Virus record (IMG/VR): IMGVR_UViG_3300021511_000006 | Location: 1 to 64,000 of that record | DNA: 64,000 nucleotides | Reading direction: 5' to 3' (one strand) | Source: a virus | Taxonomy: Duplodnaviria > Caudoviricetes | Shown here: piece by piece, positions 14,858-63,084 of the stretch | How positions within the stretch are numbered: the first letter of the stretch is position 1 | Layout: the number at the start of each line of letters is the position of its first letter | Notes under the pieces: model-generated | Told to the model about the DNA's origin: nothing | The model's input: only the letters and a program-made list of their open reading frames with translations | Databases searched by the model: none | Translations under genes and position numbers: made by a program

Positions 14858-14858
14858 C

Positions 14859-14946
14859 AAAAAAGCGGGGGGTGAGTCTTCGCTTCCCTGGAACGGGCCC
14901 GAATGACTCGACTCGGAATCCCCAACAGGTTTAGCCCCCACTTTTC
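14859..14946 (-). ncRNA. GC-rich structured intergenic element A (candidate sRNA or terminator with a large structured loop)
   Basis: 10-bp outer stem (AAAGTGGGGG/CCCCCGCTTT), inner pairings and a 3' U-tract on the minus strand. Confidence 0.35.
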
Positions 14947-14988
14947 CTTACACCAGCACTTTAGAGGTGCGTTGGTAAGATGTTACTT

Positions 14989-15120
14989 TTATTTGCACGT
15001 ACCTTTTTCTCCGCCAGTTTTTGGGCCAGTTCCCTGACCGGATTGGCCACTTCCTCCGCCTTGACCATTTCTAGGTCCGCCTGATTGTTTAGGCGGACCT
15101 GTTCCGTCACCCTTTGGCAT
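14989..15120 (-). CDS. 43-aa Gly-rich protein resembling the MPxGDGTGP (DUF5320-like) family; not in the ORF track
   Basis: MPKGDGTGPPKQSGGPRNGQGGGSGQSGQGTGPKTGGEKGTCK; Shine-Dalgarno AAGGGGGTG. Confidence 0.6.
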   Translation of the reverse strand: MPKGDGTGPPKQSGGPRNGQGGGSGQSGQGTGPKTGGEKGTCK

Positions 15121-15151
15121 ACTTAATCACCCCCTTAATGTTGTATGTAAT

Positions 15152-15307
15152 TTATTCCTTATCATCTATTGAGTTTAATTTTGCGTACATTTTTTTCTCA
15201 CATGTATTACACATGCTATGAGAAACTCCTCCATTCGCTTCATCATTTTCGTTACATGGTTTGGTTCCCATATCTAAACCACACCATGCGCATTTAATAA
15301 TTATCAT
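15152..15307 (-). CDS. 51-aa putative zinc-finger protein; not in the ORF track
   Basis: MIIIKCAWCG...VSHSMCNTCEKK (CxWC...HxxCxxC); Shine-Dalgarno AGGAGG. Confidence 0.7.
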   Translation of the reverse strand: MIIIKCAWCGLDMGTKPCNENDEANGGVSHSMCNTCEKKMYAKLNSIDDKE

Positions 15308-15316
15308 AATGTCCTC

Positions 15317-15679
15317 CTATTTCAGTGACCATCTAGCTGGTGCATCTGAGGTTGATGGTTCTCTAATAAGTTGAGCAGTAGTTTGCCCGAATTCTAACTC
15401 CCCACCAGAAACATCAATACTAATCCAGGTATACCCATCAATTTGATAGTCAACCTGATTAAATATTTCTTGGTCGGTCCATCCATTGTCAAATTTCCCC
15501 TCTGTCCAAACTTTCATTTCCTGACCATTAAGATCAACGATGGCCATATTAATTCCTCGTTGTTCAGCATTCTTATCTATAGAAACTAATTTTGGAATTG
15601 CCATCCCCACAATCACTCCTAAAATAACTAGGACTGCAAGGATTTCAACTAAGGTGAAACCCTTTTGATTTGGGTTCAT
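15317..15679 (-). CDS. Type IV pilin-like protein (class III signal peptide)
   Basis: MNPNQKG|FTLVEILAVLVILGVIVGMAIP prepilin cleavage/methylation motif; AGGAGG Shine-Dalgarno. Confidence 0.9.
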   Translation of the reverse strand: MNPNQKGFTLVEILAVLVILGVIVGMAIPKLVSIDKNAEQRGINMAIVDLNGQEMKVWTEGKFDNGWTDQEIFNQVDYQIDGYTWISIDVSGGELEFGQTTAQLIREPSTSDAPARWSLK

Positions 15680-15727
15680 GACTCCTCCTTTCAAATAATT
15701 TAAGTAATAAGTTTCATTCCTTCACCT

Positions 15728-53551: not shown

Positions 53552-53747
53552 CTGACTCTCTTTCATTTATTTTTTGTTTTAAATTACCAATGCCTTTATC
53601 AACTAAGTCTTCTGCTGTTTGTGCAGTTCTATTAACCATCAAATTAAAAAATGATCTAACAGCTTTTTTACCATTACTTACAAGATCATCAATAATTGTT
53701 TCGACCTGATTTGACATTTCTTTATCACTCAATCGTTTTTCTTCCAT
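53529..53747 (-). CDS. Small amphipathic helical hypothetical protein
   Basis: 72 aa; overlaps both neighbours. Confidence 0.55.
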   Translation of the reverse strand: MEEKRLSDKEMSNQVETIIDDLVSNGKKAVRSFFNLMVNRTAQTAEDLVDKGIGNLKQKINERESDGQDKKV

Positions 53748-54091
53748 GTCCCTAGTACCCCTTGTTTTTTATATTTTATTTCGCCCCAAGGTGTAAAGTA
53801 ACAGTTGTCTAAGTTAAAGCAAGATAACATACTAATTATCATTGAGTTTGAGTTTTTTGTTAGTTCATGCTGTCTCAAACTATTTGGAATACAAAACTCT
53901 CCAGTCCTTGGAATTGCATTTGGATGTGGATTGTTTAAAATTACCATGTCGATTTTACCATCAACAGTTTTAACTATATAATTTTTAATCTCGAATTTTT
54001 TTGCTAATTTCGTAATTTGGTATAATTCATTTTTATAAATTAATTTTCTTGGCATAATAAATTCTCTTACTTCAACATTTAGTATTTCCAT
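53729..54091 (-). CDS. Small E2/UBC-like protein
   Basis: HPNAIPRTGEFC matches the UBC HPN-x(7-8)-C catalytic signature; TAATG-coupled to the ThiF-like gene. Confidence 0.55.
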   Translation of the reverse strand: MEILNVEVREFIMPRKLIYKNELYQITKLAKKFEIKNYIVKTVDGKIDMVILNNPHPNAIPRTGEFCIPNSLRQHELTKNSNSMIISMLSCFNLDNCYFTPWGEIKYKKQGVLGTWKKND

Positions 54092-55015: not shown

Positions 55016-55603
55016 TTAAGCCAATCTTGAGTCTAACTCCTCACTATGATTTTCAATTGGTTCTGTAAATATAATTGCTCTTCTTATTAGTTCTTGTTCG
55101 TCATCTCCAACTGGGGTAGGTCTATAATGAGATTTATATTTATATAGCGAGTTGGCTAATTTGACAGGATAACTCACAGGAATCTCATATGAATATTTTT
55201 TATATCCTCTGGTTGTTCTGACAGTTATAGGCATGCTCGGATCTATTCGTTTGAGTTCTTCTGCAATTTCATTCCTGAAATGGAGCTCATCGTCATTTGA
55301 TTTTATCTTTACACCACGTTTTACGAGCTCGTCATCACGACCAGAACCATTTATTTTCCAGTTGTTCTCTTTTCTGACTAGAGCTTTAATAGCACGACCA
55401 AATGCTTTGTTCTTTCCCTCAGATTTAGAAAATGTATCTAAGAGAGAACATATAGATACTCCTCGTGCTTCAATTCGCTGTTTTGAGGAGTTTATAAAAA
55501 CACAAGTTGTAAATGCATTATTTACAACTGGACTGTTGACAAAGTAAAATGAAATTTTATCAACGTCATTGTCTTGTAAGATTTTTTGTATGTCTTCATT
55601 CAT
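55016..55603 (-). CDS. Hypothetical protein inside the ubiquitin-like cassette
   Basis: ARGVSICSLLDTFSKSEGKNKAFGRA, a pattern common in small phage proteins. Confidence 0.65.
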   Translation of the reverse strand: MNEDIQKILQDNDVDKISFYFVNSPVVNNAFTTCVFINSSKQRIEARGVSICSLLDTFSKSEGKNKAFGRAIKALVRKENNWKINGSGRDDELVKRGVKIKSNDDELHFRNEIAEELKRIDPSMPITVRTTRGYKKYSYEIPVSYPVKLANSLYKYKSHYRPTPVGDDEQELIRRAIIFTEPIENHSEELDSRLA

Positions 55604-55624
55604 GGTTTCATTCCTTTATCTGGT

Positions 55625-55644
55625 GGGGGGTCCGAAGACCCCCC
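55625..55644 (-). other. Stable cUUCGg tetraloop hairpin 3' of the Ubl gene, without U-tract
   Basis: Minus strand GGGGGGTC-TTCG-GACCCCCC. Confidence 0.7.
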
Positions 55645-55654
55645 AACAGTTAAG

Positions 55655-56122
55655 TTAGCAACCCTTCTTGCCTGCTGGTTTCAGGAATTCCAGATTGTCA
55701 CCGTTTTTCAGTACGTAATCAGCATCGACTGCTTTACCATTTACCAGACCGGTAGACAGACGATCAACGTTCAGTACTTCTCTCAGGAAGTCCCCAACAT
55801 CTTTTACTGTCTTCCCTGCGACTGGGAAATTACCCGAAGATGCACCACATGATACATGAATGGTAGTAGTAGCTCTGCTACCGAAAGGTGCTCCTGGTTT
55901 GGTCAGCGTACTTTGCCCGGAAAATTCCAGTCCGGTCAGTTTACCACCTGCAGTTTTAGCAATGGTTGCTCCTTTTTTACCGTACTGAGCCATAATGGCG
56001 TTAACAACATCGTCCTTCGGTTTCTTGGTAACACCGACGATACCCAGTTCATCAACACACATTCTTTTCAGATCTTTTGAAGTTTTTGCCTCTAAGAAAT
56101 CTCGATTAAAACTTTTACCCAT
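55655..56122 (-). CDS. Ubiquitin-like (beta-grasp) protein with N-terminal Rho-N/HeH-like domain, ending GKKG-C
   Basis: IHVSCGA...GKTVKDV...LNV...VNG...DYVLKNGDNLEFLKPAGKKGC; located between E1 genes. Confidence 0.8.
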   Translation of the reverse strand: MGKSFNRDFLEAKTSKDLKRMCVDELGIVGVTKKPKDDVVNAIMAQYGKKGATIAKTAGGKLTGLEFSGQSTLTKPGAPFGSRATTTIHVSCGASSGNFPVAGKTVKDVGDFLREVLNVDRLSTGLVNGKAVDADYVLKNGDNLEFLKPAGKKGC

Positions 56123-56137
56123 GATAATAAGTCTCCT

Positions 56138-56821
56138 TCATTTCACTATTCGGATTTTTGCGTCTGTAGTCATACTAAGCATATCAAAGTAGATTTCAGA
56201 CCGTTCATACTGTTCTTTTATAACCACGTTATAAAAAGCCCAGCACATCAATGTTGCTACCCCCAAATTTGTAAAATACAACTGAGGGTCTGATTGTGAA
56301 AGTTCTTCACAACTCATTTCTTCGGGTAACTTATCGTTAGGGTTTGCAATTTCCGGATGGTAAGCACATAAGTCCGGAGTTAAATCTTTTCCTTCCTTCC
56401 GGACATAAATCTGTACATTACCATCTGTAAATTCGTTCCCACCAGAGATTAAAATAACATCTTGTAAAGTTTTACAGTAATTAGAAACGATCATTCTGGT
56501 TTTGTGATTATCAACACATAGAAATACAATATCGCCTTCTCTTATAGTTTCCACAATATTTTTTTCGTTTACGAAGGCTTCATAAGAATCAAACCGTAGC
56601 TCACTAAATTTTATCTGAAGTTCAGTGCCTTTAATATCGGCTTTATTCCCCATGCGGGTAAACTCTTGCCTCTCATAGTTTTTATGCTCATATTCATCTC
56701 CATCTACTAATAGAATATCTGCGGCTAAATCCTTTGAATAATTCAGAAATCTGCATATTCTTTCAGAGAGAATAGAACCTACTCCCCCAAGTCCAATAAT
56801 AGTTATAGGTAATCTAGTCAC
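56138..56821 (-). CDS. ThiF/E1-like activating enzyme 1 (PRTRC ThiF-like)
   Basis: IIGLGGVG, VDGD...NYERQ, CVDNHKTR, SGGN and SCEEL...PQLYFTN with a candidate catalytic Cys. Confidence 0.9.
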   Translation of the reverse strand: MTRLPITIIGLGGVGSILSERICRFLNYSKDLAADILLVDGDEYEHKNYERQEFTRMGNKADIKGTELQIKFSELRFDSYEAFVNEKNIVETIREGDIVFLCVDNHKTRMIVSNYCKTLQDVILISGGNEFTDGNVQIYVRKEGKDLTPDLCAYHPEIANPNDKLPEEMSCEELSQSDPQLYFTNLGVATLMCWAFYNVVIKEQYERSEIYFDMLSMTTDAKIRIVK

Positions 56822-58370
56822 TACTTCTCTCCCTTGAAAATACTCGTCTAAACATGTTTTTTAATGACGCGTTAGGTTTCTCAGGAATTGGAGTGTAACT
56901 GGATCCTGGTTCTTTTATTTTTTCAATAGTTTCTTCCTTGGCTGCTAAGTCTAGTGCAGCAATATTAGCTTCTTCTTTTTCGGAATCTAGAAATGTTCCT
57001 GCATCTTTTTCAAGTTGTTCTTCTAATAATTCTTTTGAAGAAACTTCTGGTATAAATTCGCTATAGCAAAAAGGGCATATTGCGTCTTCTTGAACTGCAC
57101 GAAAGCTGCTATTACATGATGGACATACTACGTATTCAGATTTAGGTTGATCTTTTTCAAATAAGTGATCAAATTCATCAGATGGAGCATAACTGTTAAG
57201 TAGAGTATCATCATCCACAAGAATTAGGTGTTCATCAGTTAAACAATTAGAACATATGGTTGTACCTTCAAGACCTTCTTCTTTAACCAATTCACCACAT
57301 TGATTACATTGGTATATATCCTCTGTGAAGTCTTCCTTCTCTATCTCATTTGTTAGTTTACACTCTCTATGAACACATGTTGCGCAAGGAACAAAGTCAC
57401 CCTCTGGCGTATGTGGAGGAAATTTAAGAGGTGATTTATTACCAGGCCCAACATTTAATGGAGATACTCGTGTACCAGTTACATGACGTACGATACCTGT
57501 TCGTTTCCAGGCATCTGAGTTATAATGTTGTCCCCAACCAGCATATCCTCGGGAACCATAACCATAACCATATTGATGTCCCCAACTCTTATATGTGTAA
57601 ACTCCTTTGCTTACCATCTTCATCCATTTTTTGTTAAAGACTCGATCACTTGGAGATACATTCACATCATAGCGCCTATCAAACTTTCGATAGCTATAAA
57701 ATTTTGGTGTTGCTGTTGCGTCTTCAACTAGTTTGCCATCTTGTACTTTATAGATTGTTCTTACAGCTTTATTATCGACTTCATTTGTTTCTGCCATAAG
57801 AATTAATTTGTCAATATATTCATCTGGATCAACCATAACTCTATGGCCATTTGCTACAATTGATGAAGAGATGCTTGGATACTCTTCATCAAGATCGCCC
57901 AATGTAATATGAAGACCGTCAAAGTGCTCTTCATCATCATCATCAACACCAGAATGAAATGCTGACATATTCCCATGACTATGAATAGTACCGATCATTG
58001 TCATTCCTTCAATAGTAATTCCTTTATCGTAGTCACAGGATGCACCTGCAACTTTTTGTACCGGCGGAATGATTTTATATTTTCCTGTTTCTTCATTATA
58101 AAACAGGAGCACAATAGATTCTGATCTATATTCTTCATATACTGCTTTAAAAAATCCCATGACTTTAGCAATCCATTTACCAGGAATTTTAGTAATATGC
58201 ATTTTAGCCATAGTAGTAACACTATTTAGAATAGAGATATTTTTAACGGGCGCAAGACTTTCCATGACCCCAAGTTTTTTCTTTAGATACACACCTTCTT
58301 TTGCAATAATATAAAATACATCATCCTTAGGCATTTCATTTTGACCATCATTTAGGATTACTTTGAACAT
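56814..58370 (-). CDS. JAB/MPN+ metalloprotease with C-terminal zinc fingers
   Basis: E...GTIHSHGNMSAFHSGVD JAMM motif; several CxxC pairs in the C-terminal half. Confidence 0.88.
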   Translation of the reverse strand: MFKVILNDGQNEMPKDDVFYIIAKEGVYLKKKLGVMESLAPVKNISILNSVTTMAKMHITKIPGKWIAKVMGFFKAVYEEYRSESIVLLFYNEETGKYKIIPPVQKVAGASCDYDKGITIEGMTMIGTIHSHGNMSAFHSGVDDDDEEHFDGLHITLGDLDEEYPSISSSIVANGHRVMVDPDEYIDKLILMAETNEVDNKAVRTIYKVQDGKLVEDATATPKFYSYRKFDRRYDVNVSPSDRVFNKKWMKMVSKGVYTYKSWGHQYGYGYGSRGYAGWGQHYNSDAWKRTGIVRHVTGTRVSPLNVGPGNKSPLKFPPHTPEGDFVPCATCVHRECKLTNEIEKEDFTEDIYQCNQCGELVKEEGLEGTTICSNCLTDEHLILVDDDTLLNSYAPSDEFDHLFEKDQPKSEYVVCPSCNSSFRAVQEDAICPFCYSEFIPEVSSKELLEEQLEKDAGTFLDSEKEEANIAALDLAAKEETIEKIKEPGSSYTPIPEKPNASLKNMFRRVFSRERSSD

Positions 58371-60933
58371 TTACTATACTCCTCTCTTCGTTTATAAGTC
58401 TTAATTCAGATGCTTCACATGTAAAGAAGTGACCATGTAAATTTGGCCACGCTCTAACTATACCCGCTTCATTTTGAATTTTTGGTCCAATTCTTGGATT
58501 CGGAATACAATCTAATATAGAATTAGCTGTAATATATCTATCTAAACTATAATAATCAGCATATGATGTAAAGTATGCAAAATCTAATACTTTAAGACCA
58601 CCTACTCCATTAGTAAAGACAAACCATCCCTTTCGATTACTATACTCATTAATACCTTGAATAATATCACCAGGTTGATACTTAATTTTTGATACATCAA
58701 TTGAAGCATGCTTTAATGATGGCCATCTTTTTGACTTAATTGTAGTTTTTTGGAATTTTGTTAATACGTCGCTGTACCATAAAGTACAACAATTTGAGCA
58801 CAGAACAAGGGGTTCTGGTCCTCCCGTATCAGTTATAAATCCAATAATAATATTTATATCTTTCTTTGGGAATTGTGAAATGCTGGCTTCTTTAGCTTTG
58901 ATCTTTGTTCCTGCAATCAATTTACCAAATTTATTTGTAATCTTTCTTATTCTACCAACATAAATGATTCCATTTGCTCCATCAACATATCTTTCTTGAT
59001 GTAGAGTCCCTTCTTTATCAGCTAATATGAAAAATATATCACCAATAGCTGAGTCGAATTTAAACCCTTGAATTACTTTGACTGACAACATATTAACTGG
59101 ATTATGCCAATCTGAAACAACTACTTTATCTCCTATAGTAAATTCAATATCCATATCAAAACTCTGGATACGAAATTTATCTTCCCCCAACATATATTTT
59201 TTTATTTCTGGAGGAATTGGTTTAATAAGTCTAGTTCTGTTTCCTTCAAATATAACGCCAGCAGGAGAACCAAACACACTATTATTTAATAATTTTGTCT
59301 CATTTATATCTTTTATAGCTAGCATTTTTCGACCCACTCTAAATACTGGTGGTAGAGGTTTAAGTTTATCAATTTCATATAGACTTTTAGCTCGTTTTGC
59401 TGCTGATGAGTTTAAGGTAAGATTATATGATCTTATACTTTGATTAACATGTTTCATTTCAATATGTAATTGATTTCTACTGGTAGAAATTTGATTAAAT
59501 TTAACAACGACACCATTTTGAAACGGAACGTTTGCAATAGTTGGTACATAGACATATCGTTTGTTCTTTTTCAACATAATATTTTCATATTTTGGTTTTG
59601 ACGTATCAAATATCTCTCCCTCAGTATTTTCCAAAATATAAAATCCATCTCCGAATCTACCTTCATGAAATCCATCTGCAGATTTACGAACAAAGGAAAC
59701 CCTTTTATATGTAATGCCCCCGATGGCATTTTTCATAATTAGAATATCACCTTCTTTAATCTTTACTCCATTTTTCAGAATTCCCGTTTCTTCAAATCTG
59801 AGTTTCTTTGTTTCTTTAAGGAGATATTTTGTAAACATTTTGGTTTTCTTAAATATAATAAGTCTTCCATCATCTCGTTCAACTCTTATATATTTTACAT
59901 CTCCACTATCCATGAAGCTAATAAGTGAATTAATATAACAAAGAGATTTACCATTTTTAATATAAAAAGGATCTCCAACATGAACATAAAAAGTTTCATT
60001 TAAATATACGCCCGATGCAACATCATAAAATAAACTAAATTTCTTTCTAGATCTTGGAGTAGGTTTTTCATCCTTGCCTGTACTTAAAGGTTGACTAAAC
60101 ATACTAGCAAGGCTGTGATATTGAACATCATTTTGTTTTGATATGCTATAAGTTCGTTTTACTTCTTCTATTGCTTGTCCTATATTCATAGGAATTTTAA
60201 CCCAATCAACATTATAAATAAACATTGGATTTAATTGTGACAATGCTTGCCACTCCATATAAGAATTAACCCCAGCAATTTTTGAATATGAGTTATAGTT
60301 ATACATAAAGTCAGTATTAAATTCAGATCCCCAAAAGACATTGATTGCTTTTTCTACTGTTGAATTTAATGATTGTGTCCGACCATCTGCTCTATCTCCA
60401 AAACAAATATACTGATTATCAGCTATATTTAGTAATGGTATTTTAAGCAAGTAATCAGCTAACCCCGAGAGTCTTGCAATCCTAAGATATGCTTGCCCAC
60501 CAGATATATCATAATAATCTGATATATATAGAAGAAATATAACATACGGAAATGCCAATGTAAATTGCCTTGGACCTCCCTTCTCAGCGAAGTTTTTCTT
60601 ATATTTGTATTCTTCTAATTTTCCTTCTGCTTTTAATTTATCAACTTCAGCATGAAAATGCATATTAATGCTGACAGTTCTAAATGCCGGAGGTTCTTCA
60701 ACAACAATAATATGACCTTTGTTTACTTTTTCCATATATCTACAATTTGGTGGAATAACTACTGGTGTTTCGCTACCAAATTCCAGACTTATACGTCTTA
60801 GATAGTCAGGTGTTAATAACACTTTTTTATTAATTTTTGGGGTTGATTCCCCCTTCATTGATTTATCATATTCAGAAGAATAAAGATGTGTATATTTCTG
60901 ATTAATTCGTATTTCATTTTGTAAATCGAGCAT
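58348..60933 (-). CDS. Prokaryotic E2-like (Prok-E2 family D-like) domain fused to a long C-terminal region
   Basis: LAFPYVIF...PLLNI...YICFG...FWGSEFNTD pattern with candidate catalytic Cys; adjacent to JAB, E1 and Ubl. Confidence 0.7.
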   Translation of the reverse strand: MLDLQNEIRINQKYTHLYSSEYDKSMKGESTPKINKKVLLTPDYLRRISLEFGSETPVVIPPNCRYMEKVNKGHIIVVEEPPAFRTVSINMHFHAEVDKLKAEGKLEEYKYKKNFAEKGGPRQFTLAFPYVIFLLYISDYYDISGGQAYLRIARLSGLADYLLKIPLLNIADNQYICFGDRADGRTQSLNSTVEKAINVFWGSEFNTDFMYNYNSYSKIAGVNSYMEWQALSQLNPMFIYNVDWVKIPMNIGQAIEEVKRTYSISKQNDVQYHSLASMFSQPLSTGKDEKPTPRSRKKFSLFYDVASGVYLNETFYVHVGDPFYIKNGKSLCYINSLISFMDSGDVKYIRVERDDGRLIIFKKTKMFTKYLLKETKKLRFEETGILKNGVKIKEGDILIMKNAIGGITYKRVSFVRKSADGFHEGRFGDGFYILENTEGEIFDTSKPKYENIMLKKNKRYVYVPTIANVPFQNGVVVKFNQISTSRNQLHIEMKHVNQSIRSYNLTLNSSAAKRAKSLYEIDKLKPLPPVFRVGRKMLAIKDINETKLLNNSVFGSPAGVIFEGNRTRLIKPIPPEIKKYMLGEDKFRIQSFDMDIEFTIGDKVVVSDWHNPVNMLSVKVIQGFKFDSAIGDIFFILADKEGTLHQERYVDGANGIIYVGRIRKITNKFGKLIAGTKIKAKEASISQFPKKDINIIIGFITDTGGPEPLVLCSNCCTLWYSDVLTKFQKTTIKSKRWPSLKHASIDVSKIKYQPGDIIQGINEYSNRKGWFVFTNGVGGLKVLDFAYFTSYADYYSLDRYITANSILDCIPNPRIGPKIQNEAGIVRAWPNLHGHFFTCEASELRLINEERSIVNVQSNPK

Positions 60934-61655: not shown

Positions 61656-62702
61656 TTAATCCTCCCGTTTATCTGAGTGAACTAGTGTGCCCACTTCCTT
61701 ATTTGTTCTATCAAAATATTGACTCATCATTAAGCATGAATGATTACAGAGGTCACAAAGACGCTTTTTATCTGTTCTTATTCCAGTTAATACATCACTG
61801 GACAAAAGTTGTGGATATGCTGAATCGAATAGATTTTTTATGGTGTTATATGGAGTTATTACTCCTTTAATTCTTAAACATAATCTTATTGTTCCATCAG
61901 AGTCAATTGTTAAGTTATGTATACCATCCTCAAGCTCGCAGTCAAAATTTGATGGTAATGTATCAAACATTCTTGGAATTAAAATATCTTTCATATGAAC
62001 TAACAATGAATGGTCGTGCATAATATCAAGCAACTGTCCTGCTAAACTTAATGTTGGTTGAACTAAAAGATTCTTATCCCTAATATTTGAAAAATCGTAA
62101 TAGATGTTTTTTGTAATATCTACAAATGTAATATCGCTATATATTTCTTCCTTACTTAAATTACAGATAAGTTGGTGTAAGAAATGTTGATTATGTTTCA
62201 TAACTGTTATTTCAGCTACAACATCTTTAACCAACCCTGCTGCTTGAAGTTCTTTTAATCTTTGTAATCCTTCAATACTTTTTCTGACTCGATCTTTGTT
62301 GAGTTCAGGCTCGTTAAAAATAGGATCAACAGAACTTGTAAAACCTTCTATATGACCTACTTTATTAAATAGTTTTATCAATGCAGGTTGAACTTCAGGT
62401 GTGTTATTACTGATTATTGTATAATATATTTCATTATCATTACAATAATTAATAATGTCTGCAAGGTCTGGTCTTAATAATGGCTCGCCTCCATAAAAGA
62501 TATTGAAGACATTTGGATTATGTATTTTTAATTTTCCTAATGTTTCAATAACAACTTCAGTTGGCATTTCGTTTTTGATATAATGTTTCATATCAGGATA
62601 GCAAGAAGGTTTATTTTCATAGTTTCGAACTATACCACAGTAATCACATTTCAAATTGCACTTCCTTGTGAGAAGCCAATTTACAATTCTAACTTGACTC
62701 AT
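61656..62702 (-). CDS. Radical SAM enzyme with Cys-rich (SPASM/twitch-like) C-terminus
   Basis: CNLKCDYC, GGEPLL, IISN, C...DSDGTIRLC and CDLCNHSC; start MSQVRIV after a GGAG Shine-Dalgarno. Confidence 0.9.
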   Translation of the reverse strand: MSQVRIVNWLLTRKCNLKCDYCGIVRNYENKPSCYPDMKHYIKNEMPTEVVIETLGKLKIHNPNVFNIFYGGEPLLRPDLADIINYCNDNEIYYTIISNNTPEVQPALIKLFNKVGHIEGFTSSVDPIFNEPELNKDRVRKSIEGLQRLKELQAAGLVKDVVAEITVMKHNQHFLHQLICNLSKEEIYSDITFVDITKNIYYDFSNIRDKNLLVQPTLSLAGQLLDIMHDHSLLVHMKDILIPRMFDTLPSNFDCELEDGIHNLTIDSDGTIRLCLRIKGVITPYNTIKNLFDSAYPQLLSSDVLTGIRTDKKRLCDLCNHSCLMMSQYFDRTNKEVGTLVHSDKRED

Positions 62703-62703
62703 A

Positions 62704-63084
62704 TTAATCTCCAGTTTCAAGTAATATCGTTCCGTCATATTCTTCTATAATATCACGAAATCTGTCTATTCGATAACAGTCATTTCTGTCTATTCTAGCA
62801 TAAGCGATAAACTTACCCCTATCTAATATCTCAGCAGCTTCTTTATAACATATTTTATCCATATTATAAAAATCGCTAGGAACTCCTCTTGCTTTTGCAA
62901 TCCAATCGTTTCTTCCTGCTTCGGTAAAATTGATAAGATTTTTTTTATTCTTGAAGAATCTAAAAGATTCATCATGATGGAATTCGAATTTCTTTTGTAT
63001 ATCTTTCCTCAATGTTTTGTTGCCTAGTTCAATAATGAACATTGTGGACGAGCTATTTGTTATAAAATCAAGATTTATTTTCAT
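62704..63084 (-). CDS. TNSSS-motif protein 2 (MKINLDFITNSSSTMF)
   Basis: N-terminal motif; immediately upstream of the radical SAM gene. Confidence 0.75.
   Translation of the reverse strand: MKINLDFITNSSSTMFIIELGNKTLRKDIQKKFEFHHDESFRFFKNKKNLINFTEAGRNDWIAKARGVPSDFYNMDKICYKEAAEILDRGKFIAYARIDRNDCYRIDRFRDIIEEYDGTILLETGD

Follow-up and report, generated by a model that had tools for sequence, protein, structure and literature searches.

The viral record IMGVR_UViG_3300021511_000006 (Caudoviricetes) was analysed over its positions 1 to 64,000, and this whole stretch of DNA is referred to as the window. The window is phage DNA, coding for a collagen-like tail fibre, a tail sheath and a tape-measure-like protein. 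On its minus strand a run of co-oriented genes was identified, which encodes an 861-amino acid (aa) E2_D-like protein, a JAB peptidase, a ThiF-type adenylating enzyme (E1), a ubiquitin-like protein (Ubl), a 195-aa protein, a ThiF-like protein, a 120-aa protein, small open reading frames (ORFs) and the subunits beta' and beta of RNA polymerase. This paper focuses on the Ubl gene, which is predicted to code for the precursor of a conjugated protein modifier. In a first-pass annotation, made from the nucleotide sequence, the gene was described as an unusual pro-Ubl with a Rho-N/HeH-like N-terminus, a Gly-Cys tail, a shifted codon usage and a UUCG hairpin behind the stop codon. The features of the locus are compiled in Table 1, together with two genes from cultured phages that are discussed below.

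Table 1. Position and basis of assignment of the features at the Ubl locus and of two poly-Ubl genes in Bacillus phages.
Feature	Position	Strand	Basis
Ubl precursor gene, 155 aa and stop codon	55655..56122	minus	ORF list and sequence
Head of Rho_N/SAP/HeH type, residues 6-50, three helices (H7-11, H15-24, H36-47)	55973..56107	minus	Pfam, family profile, AlphaFold2 model
Linker with conserved motif, residues 51-83, low confidence	55874..55972	minus	Model pLDDT and alignment
Beta-grasp domain, residues 84-154, end G151-K152-K153-G154	55661..55873	minus	Fold search, conservation, Pfam
Codon 155 (TGC, Cys), putative one-residue cap beyond the reactive Gly	55658..55660	minus	Tail statistics
Shine-Dalgarno sequence GAAGGAG, 10 nt 5' of the ATG, overlapping the E1 stop codon	56133..56139	minus	Read from the sequence
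3' stem-loop, 9-bp GC-rich stem with cUUCGg tetraloop (55624-55645), outer 3-bp CUG/CAG helix	55620..55649	minus	RNA folding
E1, ThiF-type adenylating enzyme, 227 aa, Cys171 in MSCEE	56138..56821	minus	Pfam ThiF 1.1e-16
JAB/JAMM peptidase, 518 aa, zinc-ribbon-rich C-terminal extension	56814..58370	minus	Pfam Prok-JAB 3.1e-5
861-aa protein, E2 family D-like segment at about 155-235, Cys177	58348..60933	minus	Pfam Prok-E2_D 3.7e-4, below cutoff
Accessory gene, 195 aa, just beyond the hairpin	55016..55603	minus	Detected in 18 of 57 related loci
Second ThiF-like protein, 286 aa	54091..54951	minus	Pfam ThiF 4.4e-15 over residues 5-116
UBC-like E2 candidate, 120 aa, HPN(56-58)-x8-Cys67	53729..54091	minus	Conserved residues
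KLEB27-3 poly-Ubl, four 57-aa repeats, each ending ..FEVKAGVKG	L063:742-1449		
WH1 poly-Ubl, five 57-aa repeats ending ..KVQAGTKG	L064:6827-7726		

Domains and C-terminus of the ubiquitin-like protein

Translation of the ORF gives a 155-aa protein with the C-terminal residues ...KPAGKKGC. In a homologue search of 5.8 billion proteins 409 relatives were identified, the best 120 of which are 60-100% identical to the query, and an exhaustive profile search at E<=1e-3 resulted in a family of 714 clusters. No relatives were found by a scan of 185,579 species representatives of cellular genomes, neither the protein nor 8 kb of surrounding DNA had a match in the phage collection, and a second copy of either domain was absent from the six translated frames of the 64-kb window.

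For the window protein alone, the match of the N-terminal region to Pfam Rho_N (PF07498) is weak (residues 10-51, E 0.0037, 17.6 bits compared to a cutoff of 24.9 bits). In a set of 117 diverse full-length relatives, however, Rho_N was matched by 71 proteins (best 8e-18) and SAP by 11, and the family profile was found to align with the helical N-domain of Rho from Thermotoga (3l0o; E 4e-5). The Rho-N/HeH-like N-terminus of the first-pass annotation is thus solid at the level of the family and not by the score of the window protein itself.

An AlphaFold2 model based on the alignment of the 117 sequences replaced an earlier model from a shallow alignment, for which the confidence score pLDDT had been 54.6. 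The new model has a pLDDT of 68 overall and of 70-86 inside both domains, and values below 50 were obtained for residues 51-71 of the linker. In the alignment of relatives, the linker positions F67, S71, T74, K75, P76 and G81 are invariant or nearly so.

Residues 84-154 of the model are predicted to adopt a beta-grasp fold, as expected for a conjugated Ubl modifier and as proposed initially. All of the best 50 structural matches to this region are beta-grasp domains, mostly Ubls and sulfur carriers, with Z scores of 7-9.1 and, for aligned lengths of 58-81 residues (66-71 for the best matches), root-mean-square deviations of about 2-3 A. The closest match is Fubi (Z 9.1, 1.9 A over 66 residues); MoaD and ISG15 (both Z 8.3), SAMP1 (Z 7.1), TtuB, SUMO and ubiquitin were also among the matches. 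A Foldseek search of the model against the PDB gave nothing at E<=0.001, and the weak matches below that level were also Ubls. On the sequence level, the window protein matches Pfam TGS (PF02824) with 23.5 bits at a cutoff of 22.2 bits (5.9e-5), with only model positions 32-60 of 60 covered. Of the 117 relatives, 31 matched TGS and 28 matched ThiS, a related family of beta-grasp domains. An FHA domain was also considered, based on a weak profile match to the Dun1 FHA domain (E 0.036) and on an FHA match in one of the 117 relatives. It was rejected, since these matches rest on a shared ..VNG..V....L..GD..F motif and no FHA domain is present among the 50 best structures.

The proposal of a modifier had been made dependent on the conservation of its G-x-K-G end. 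In the 117 diverse relatives, G151 is conserved in 98%, K153 in 100% and G154 in 93% of the sequences, and the motif is nearly invariant across more than 700 sequence clusters, so that the proposal withstands this check. The residue following the Gly behaves differently. Among the best 120 of the 409 relatives, 81 end in Gly-Cys, 36 in Gly, and three in Gly followed by N, Y or F, whereas the majority of the cluster representatives stop at the Gly and the others carry Cys or one to eight other residues. The tails seen after the Gly include none, C, N, Y, F, LN, II, SK, KVM and VVRIG, among others. Of the Gly-Cys tail described for the window protein, the Gly has therefore been retained as a family feature and the Cys has not, since most clusters stop at Gly and the state of the tail is labile on the RNA polymerase tree. 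A conserved C-terminal Gly, either free or with a variable tail, is the end expected for a conjugated Ubl modifier.

When the Cys tail was placed on a beta' tree of 53 phages, eight changes were needed, and the good support of the branches makes at least six of them unavoidable; most of the deepest branches have no tail. In tail-less Ubl genes the codon GGN is directly followed by TAA or TAG (TGA once), without a second stop codon. A derivation of the Cys codon from a second, mutated stop codon was rejected for this reason, and the codon is considered a true insertion.

The family also includes head-to-tail poly-Ubl proteins with two to four repeats, each ending in ..EFVK.AG.KG, which are joined directly and followed by a short final tail. 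Together with the variable and dispensable tail, these repeats fit the pattern of a precursor that is trimmed after the Gly, so that the pro-Ubl design proposed initially appears sound in this respect, judged from the sequences.

The conserved gene block and related cassettes

The order of the genes was found to be the same in 57 of 57 related contigs of the viral collection, with lengths of up to 248 kb: radical SAM, WYL_2, a 125-aa gene, the E2 fusion, JAB, E1, Ubl, in some cases the 195-aa gene, ThiF-like, the 120-aa gene, beta' and beta. In these contigs the median identity to the window is 68-69% for the RNA polymerase subunits, 69% for E1, 60% for Ubl, 40% for JAB, 38% for the ThiF-like protein, 37% for the E2 fusion and 34% for the 120-aa protein. 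Since the identity of the Ubl tracks that of the RNA polymerase (Spearman 0.86), the block is, on the evidence of these sequences, a core element passed on vertically in an uncultured lineage of myophages and not a recently acquired accessory gene (moron). The putative tagging machinery is as conserved as the phage's own RNA polymerase. In this polymerase-linked lineage the Rho_N/SAP-type head is always present, in one to three copies. A Ubl set was not identified among the genes near the polymerase gene of Rhizobium phage RHph_Y65.

A scan of the block showed that the Ubl gene is accompanied by a ThiF-type E1, a JAB and two E2-like genes. The nucleotide-binding motifs and Cys171 of E1 are conserved in at least 95% of the sequences. 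In JAB, the residues E84, H130, H132, S140 and D143 are invariant in 38 sequences, so that the JAMM site is kept. The 120-aa protein has no Pfam match, but its HPN motif and Cys67 are conserved in at least 95% of 47 sequences. For the E2 family D segment of the 861-aa protein, Cys177 is conserved in at least 80%, and the segment matches gp214 of Bacillus phage WH1, a standalone E2_D-like protein; for 600 unassigned residues of the same protein, a structure search of the Atlas gave nothing usable (TM <=0.25). The Ubl thus has a putative cognate E1 with the motifs and the Cys, and by E2 candidates with a Cys, as would be required for a conjugated modifier. Among the defence-system models none fits JAB, the E2 fusion or the Ubl, and only E1-E2 fusion models match the ThiF domains. 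The 195-aa accessory protein had no family match in library scans. It is unlikely that the Gly-Cys end forms a thioester by an N-to-S acyl shift without an E1, since most relatives are devoid of the Cys and since the E1 gene belongs to the best conserved ones in the block.

A role as sulfur carrier had been named as the alternative in the first-pass annotation. The E1 would adenylate Gly154, a sulfurtransferase would form the thiocarboxylate, and the sulfur would be donated to a cofactor, to a nucleoside or for the modification of a base in DNA or RNA, with JAB acting like Mec+ or QbsD in the removal of the residues after the Gly. Weak matches to ThiS (E 0.0059) and MoaD (E 0.0011) and the MoaD, TtuB and ThiS-like structures among the top fold matches would agree with such a role; both profile scores are below cutoff, however (ThiS 17.6 compared to 22.5 bits, moaD_arch 19.4 compared to 49.5 bits), and the protein ends in K-G instead of G-G. 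The E1 is of the minimal ThiF or MoeB type, JAB enzymes are known to serve such pathways, for example Mec+ for CysO, and radical SAM genes are present in the same conserved block, whereas rhodanese, cysteine desulfurase, PP-loop, MoaE and ThiG proteins were not found among the about nine block proteins scanned. In addition, the block codes for two E2-like proteins with a conserved Cys, and sulfur-carrier pathways have none (PMC10557695). A catalytic carrier would also need neither an extreme dosage nor poly-Ubl genes or a Rho_N head, and this role is considered highly improbable.

Several further observations were made on the partner proteins. The 286-aa ThiF-like protein contains a C-terminal region of about 170 residues outside the ThiF domain, which ends in ..ETGAA, with the Gly and the final Ala kept in at least 95% of 50 sequences. 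This region may represent a domain with a ubiquitin fold or for E2 docking, or else a second reactive C-terminus; a relationship to the Ubl family was not detectable. The start of the 120-aa gene overlaps the stop codon of the ThiF-like gene, and its HPN-x8-Cys motif is a UBC signature of the eukaryotic type. JAB contains several CxxC pairs of zinc-ribbon-like appearance at residues of about 320-450 and an acidic tail, and the relatives of JAB range in length from about 310 to 630 aa. A radical SAM gene of the SPASM or twitch type (window 61656-62738, minus), WYL_2 (Sm-like barrel) and the 125-aa gene always precede the Ubl block, and in the distant relative P0166, with a three-headed Ubl, the Ubl gene is flanked by radical SAM on one side and WYL_2 on the other, which suggests that these genes may be linked to the Ubl in function.

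With the window E1 as query, five records of the phage collection were matched, three of which are the jumbo Bacillus phages vB_BauM_KLEB27-3, vB_BceM_WH1 and Edson (OM634661, LC597490 and PV796108). These phages contain an E1 (29% identity, 1.6e-18), a JAB (2e-12) and an E2_D segment (1e-3) homologous to those of the window. In KLEB27-3 the gene order is poly-Ubl, a 147-aa gene, a 559-aa gene, E2-like, PRTRC_A-like JAB and ThiF. The poly-Ubl proteins of the Bacillus phages share a weak similarity with the window Ubl family, mainly in the C-terminal motif, and the cassettes differ from the window by the absence of a Rho_N head, by the gene order and by the absence of adjoining polymerase genes. 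The WH1 poly-Ubl was annotated as 'virion structural protein' by the depositors; the basis is not traceable, and the annotation is taken as a lead only. Metagenomic poly-Ubl cassettes were also identified, in which an E2 family D protein and ThiF occur together with a reverse transcriptase. In both contigs with such a cassette (L061:2690-8366 and L062:10001-16197), the order is poly-Ubl, E2 family D, two genes of no assigned function, ThiF, two further such genes and the reverse transcriptase. A description of the phage E1/E2/JAB/Ubl block or of the Bacillus-phage cassettes was not found in the literature.

The Ubl might also be a non-covalent RNA- or polymerase-binding factor, in which a Rho_N head and a TGS-like beta-grasp domain form an abundant adaptor or chaperone that is never conjugated. 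TGS is the best Pfam match, just over its cutoff (23.5 compared to 22.2 bits), but only the last half of the model is covered. Both types of domain are known from proteins that handle RNA, the block continues into the polymerase genes in all 57 loci, and a high abundance would suit a chaperone. In contrast, the strictest conservation is located at the extreme C-terminus and is followed by freely varying tails, and headless poly forms exist with the same set of E1, JAB and E2 and without polymerase genes nearby. Such a factor is therefore judged unlikely.

Codon usage and the 3' hairpin

The GC content of the Ubl ORF is 44.4%, whereas the window as a whole has 32.7% and the E2 gene 30.7%. Of the nine 60-nt lines of the ORF, seven have a GC content of 43-55%, while the two lines at the 5' end have 30-35%. 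The GC content at third codon positions (GC3) is 0.357 and is the highest of the 68 ORFs of the window, and at the first and second positions (GC12) it is 0.494, so that the amino acid composition accounts for part of the excess. The third highest GC3 of the window belongs to a 125-aa ORF (window 15317-15694, minus) with a type IV pilin-like N-terminus and PHROG pilin matches.

The shift in codon usage is selective. For Leu, 12 of 13 codons in the Ubl gene are CTG, compared to 3% in the other genes of the operon, and TTC for Phe (71% compared to 18%), ACC for Thr (50% compared to 10%) and GGT for Gly (65% compared to 35%) are enriched in the same way, whereas AAA, GAA and GAT are used as in the operon. 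In the other window ORFs with at least nine Leu codons, including the tail sheath gene, CTG never exceeds 11%. A four-codon index amounts to 0.69 for the Ubl gene, with a median of 0.147 in the window and no shift for the tail sheath gene; this index is partly circular, because its codons were chosen from the Ubl gene itself. The codon shift reported in the first-pass annotation was thus reproduced, with the qualification that the excess of GC is explained by codon choice only in part.

Across related loci, the Ubl GC3 tops that of the conserved block genes in 47 of 54 cases (Wilcoxon p 1.7e-10). While the neighbouring genes prefer TTA for Leu, the Ubl gene prefers another codon in 56 of 57 loci, with CTG in 27 and CTT in 19. 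Because the shift recurs with phage-specific Leu codons and the block is inherited vertically, it points to a translational selection tuned to each host and not to a foreign origin.

The 3' hairpin, UGGGGGGUC-UUCG-GACCCCCCA on the minus strand, lies 9 nt beyond the Ubl stop codon. An 81-nt region containing it folds with -28.1 kcal/mol (z -3.65), and none of 200 shuffled sequences folds as well; only a handful of comparable hairpins are present in the 64-kb window. When stems of 7 bp or more, including five or more GC pairs, were required within 70 nt of the stop codon, a hairpin was identified after the Ubl gene in 86% of 49 distinct related loci, compared to 2.9% of 549 other gene ends that served as control. 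Between the loci the stem sequences change while the pairing is kept, and the loops are mostly UUCG, UCCG or GAAA. The hairpin noted at first pass is thus real and conserved, with one correction: no U tract follows it in the window, where CCAGAUAAAGG comes next, and it is not listed by a terminator scan. In the related loci, five or more T among the first 8 nt beyond the stem were found in only about six of 44. Due to the absence of the U tract, the window hairpin does not correspond to a classical intrinsic terminator. Leaky termination of the phage or host polymerase is one possible role and stabilisation of the 3' end another, and either would raise the Ubl message over the downstream genes and possibly over the AU-rich upstream genes. 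Rfam families were not found in the whole 64-kb window. Elsewhere in the window, a GC-rich (0.44) gap between convergent genes at 14858-15316 contains three strong hairpins (14867-14888, 15024-15048 and 15072-15101) with neither an Rfam match nor a tRNA; it could be a terminator cluster or a small RNA.

A hairpin after the Ubl gene is also present in four of four poly-Ubl cassettes checked, with a U tract in three of them, and in both Bacillus phages for which the GC3 was measured it is highest in the Ubl gene of the cassette. Because poly-Ubl cassettes share the hairpin 3' of the Ubl gene, an excess of the tag appears to be reached by two routes, gene repeats or codon tuning, with a common design of a terminator hairpin behind the Ubl gene.

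Codon usage and hairpin together point to a high output of Ubl, as claimed initially, and both recur across the lineage; by these signals the Ubl gene carries the strongest predicted expression in the window. Its strong ribosome-binding site (GAAGGAG, Table 1) is counted among the signs of a high dosage as well. It is conceivable that the protein is not highly expressed, and that the GC-rich codons and the hairpin derive from a recently contributing donor of higher GC content or from a constraint at the nucleotide level, which would bear on this one sub-claim only. Codon bias is indirect evidence, and the GC excess reflects in part the amino acid composition (GC12 0.494). However, the correlation of Ubl and RNA polymerase divergence, the recurrence of the shift in 47 of 54 loci with a Leu codon choice that varies by phage, and the restriction of the shift to CTG, TTC, ACC and GGT while AAA, GAA and GAT stay unchanged all speak against it, as do distant cassettes that gain a high dosage by gene repeats instead. 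A low expression is considered very unlikely.

Proposed role and comparison with known systems

Taken together, the gene is proposed to encode the precursor of a conjugated ubiquitin-like modifier which is used in bulk by the phage, with an estimated probability of roughly two thirds. In the proposed pathway, the adjacent JAMM peptidase would remove Cys155 and expose Gly154, and in the poly-Ubl relatives it would cut between the repeats; it would probably also reverse conjugates. The 227-aa E1 would adenylate Gly154 and take the tag onto Cys171, from where it would be passed to Cys67 of the 120-aa UBC-like protein or to Cys177 of the 861-aa E2 fusion, and then to Lys residues of the targets. 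With the hairpin ending or stabilising the transcript after the Ubl gene and with optimal codons, the amount of tag protein would far exceed that of the enzymes. From this dosage it would follow that the tag is consumed stoichiometrically, either in chains or on a large number of target molecules. Through the Rho_N-like head, the tagged protein would gain a module for the binding of nucleic acid or polymerase; that the Rho_N/SAP head may bind either of them is a conjecture.

Several points speak against this proposal. The C-terminus is K-G, whereas most studied modifiers have G-G, and the E1 is of the minimal 227-aa ThiF type, a size also found in sulfur-carrier systems. Cys by far outnumbers each of the other tail residues, which a purely disposable cap does not explain. 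The window hairpin is devoid of a U tract, so that termination is not assured, and the structural model is of moderate confidence only (pLDDT 68). The primary RNA site of Rho is the adjoining OB fold, and the Rho_N helical bundle is thus not itself the RNA site.

A more far-reaching version, so far tentative and rather doubtful, is that the tag is a bulk structural modifier, present at or above the level of a major virion protein and bound covalently in many copies or chains. Its targets would be virion proteins or proteins on the phage DNA or the polymerase, with the head tethering nucleic acid, and a phage-built covalent coat or a scaffold of a chromatin-like or transcription compartment would result. 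This version is compatible with the extreme dosage signals, with the poly-Ubl genes of other phages and with the WH1 annotation of untraceable basis.

By the evidence of the gene block, some phages probably run their own bulk protein-tagging system. If the conjugation is real, phages would use protein tagging for their own programme, be it takeover, assembly or the protection of DNA or transcription, and the poly-Ubl genes with G-x-K-G ends would be viral counterparts of polyubiquitin. Because homologous cassettes occur in jumbo phages of Bacillus that are in culture, the question can be addressed experimentally.

In eukaryotic polyubiquitin precursors, an extra residue follows the last Gly, which is Cys in human UBB, Val in human UBC and Asn in yeast UBI4, and which is removed by a deubiquitinase. 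The phage genes are similar in that repeats, or a monomer with one extra residue after the predicted reactive Gly, appear to serve a high dosage. They differ in the protein family, which is ThiS/MoaD/TGS-like for the window Ubl, in the end K-G instead of G-G, and in that dosage is reached in the window by codons and an mRNA hairpin and not by repeats. In the CysO/Mec+ and QbsE/QbsD pairs, a beta-grasp carrier and a ThiF-type E1 are combined with a JAB that cuts the bond after the C-terminal Gly. The bond cleaved by Mec+ in CysO is also Gly-Cys, but the Cys of CysO is added after translation and not encoded. Unlike the window system, these sulfur carriers have no E2, end in G-G, contain no extra head and are not needed in bulk.

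A phage Ubl with a conserved C-terminal Gly next to a JAB is known from the tail assembly proteins I and K of the lambda and T1 type (PMC1779556). There, the genes are located in a tail assembly cluster without E1 or E2, and the Ubl is fused to a C-terminal domain. A similarity also exists to the PRTRC cassette (ParB-related, ThiF-related) of plasmids and integrative elements, since the window JAB is nearest to PRTRC protein A (3.9e-12) and the E1 aligns nearly over its full length with NCBIfam PRTRC_ThiF (6.4e-9). Both scores are far below the cutoffs of these families (46.1 compared to 101.8 bits for PRTRC_A and 35.5 compared to 144.75 bits for PRTRC_ThiF), the Ubl has no match to PRTRC protein C, and no ParB homologue was seen in the block.

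By analogy, the closest known system is Type II Bil, consisting of the Ubl BilA, the E2 BilB, the JAB BilC and the E1 BilD. Here also, a single beta-grasp Ubl is present, often with a variable N-terminal domain (PMC10557695; PMC11601603), and E1, E2 and JAB are separate genes in one operon. Up to nine residues without conservation follow a Gly that is universally conserved, and the JAB BilC removes them by a cut between Gly97 and Ala98 (PMC10557695). Bil models in NCBIfam or PADLOC gave no match to the window proteins, and these libraries may lack suitable models. The Bil E1 is a protein of roughly 500 aa with an inactive (IAD) and an active (AAD) adenylation domain and a CYS domain, whereas the window contains a 227-aa E1 with a single adenylation domain and a second ThiF-like gene, which might supply the second half of a Bil-type E1. 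Further differences from Bil are the Rho_N-like head, the K-G end and the E2s, one of which is a fusion of the family D-like type and the other a minimal HPN..C protein. So far, bacterial Ubl conjugation has been known as anti-phage defence, in Bil, Bub and CBASS Cap2/Cap3, with Type II Bil being sparsely distributed among bacteria. In the window, the predicted machinery is viral, and the set forms a vertically inherited core block of a phage lineage.

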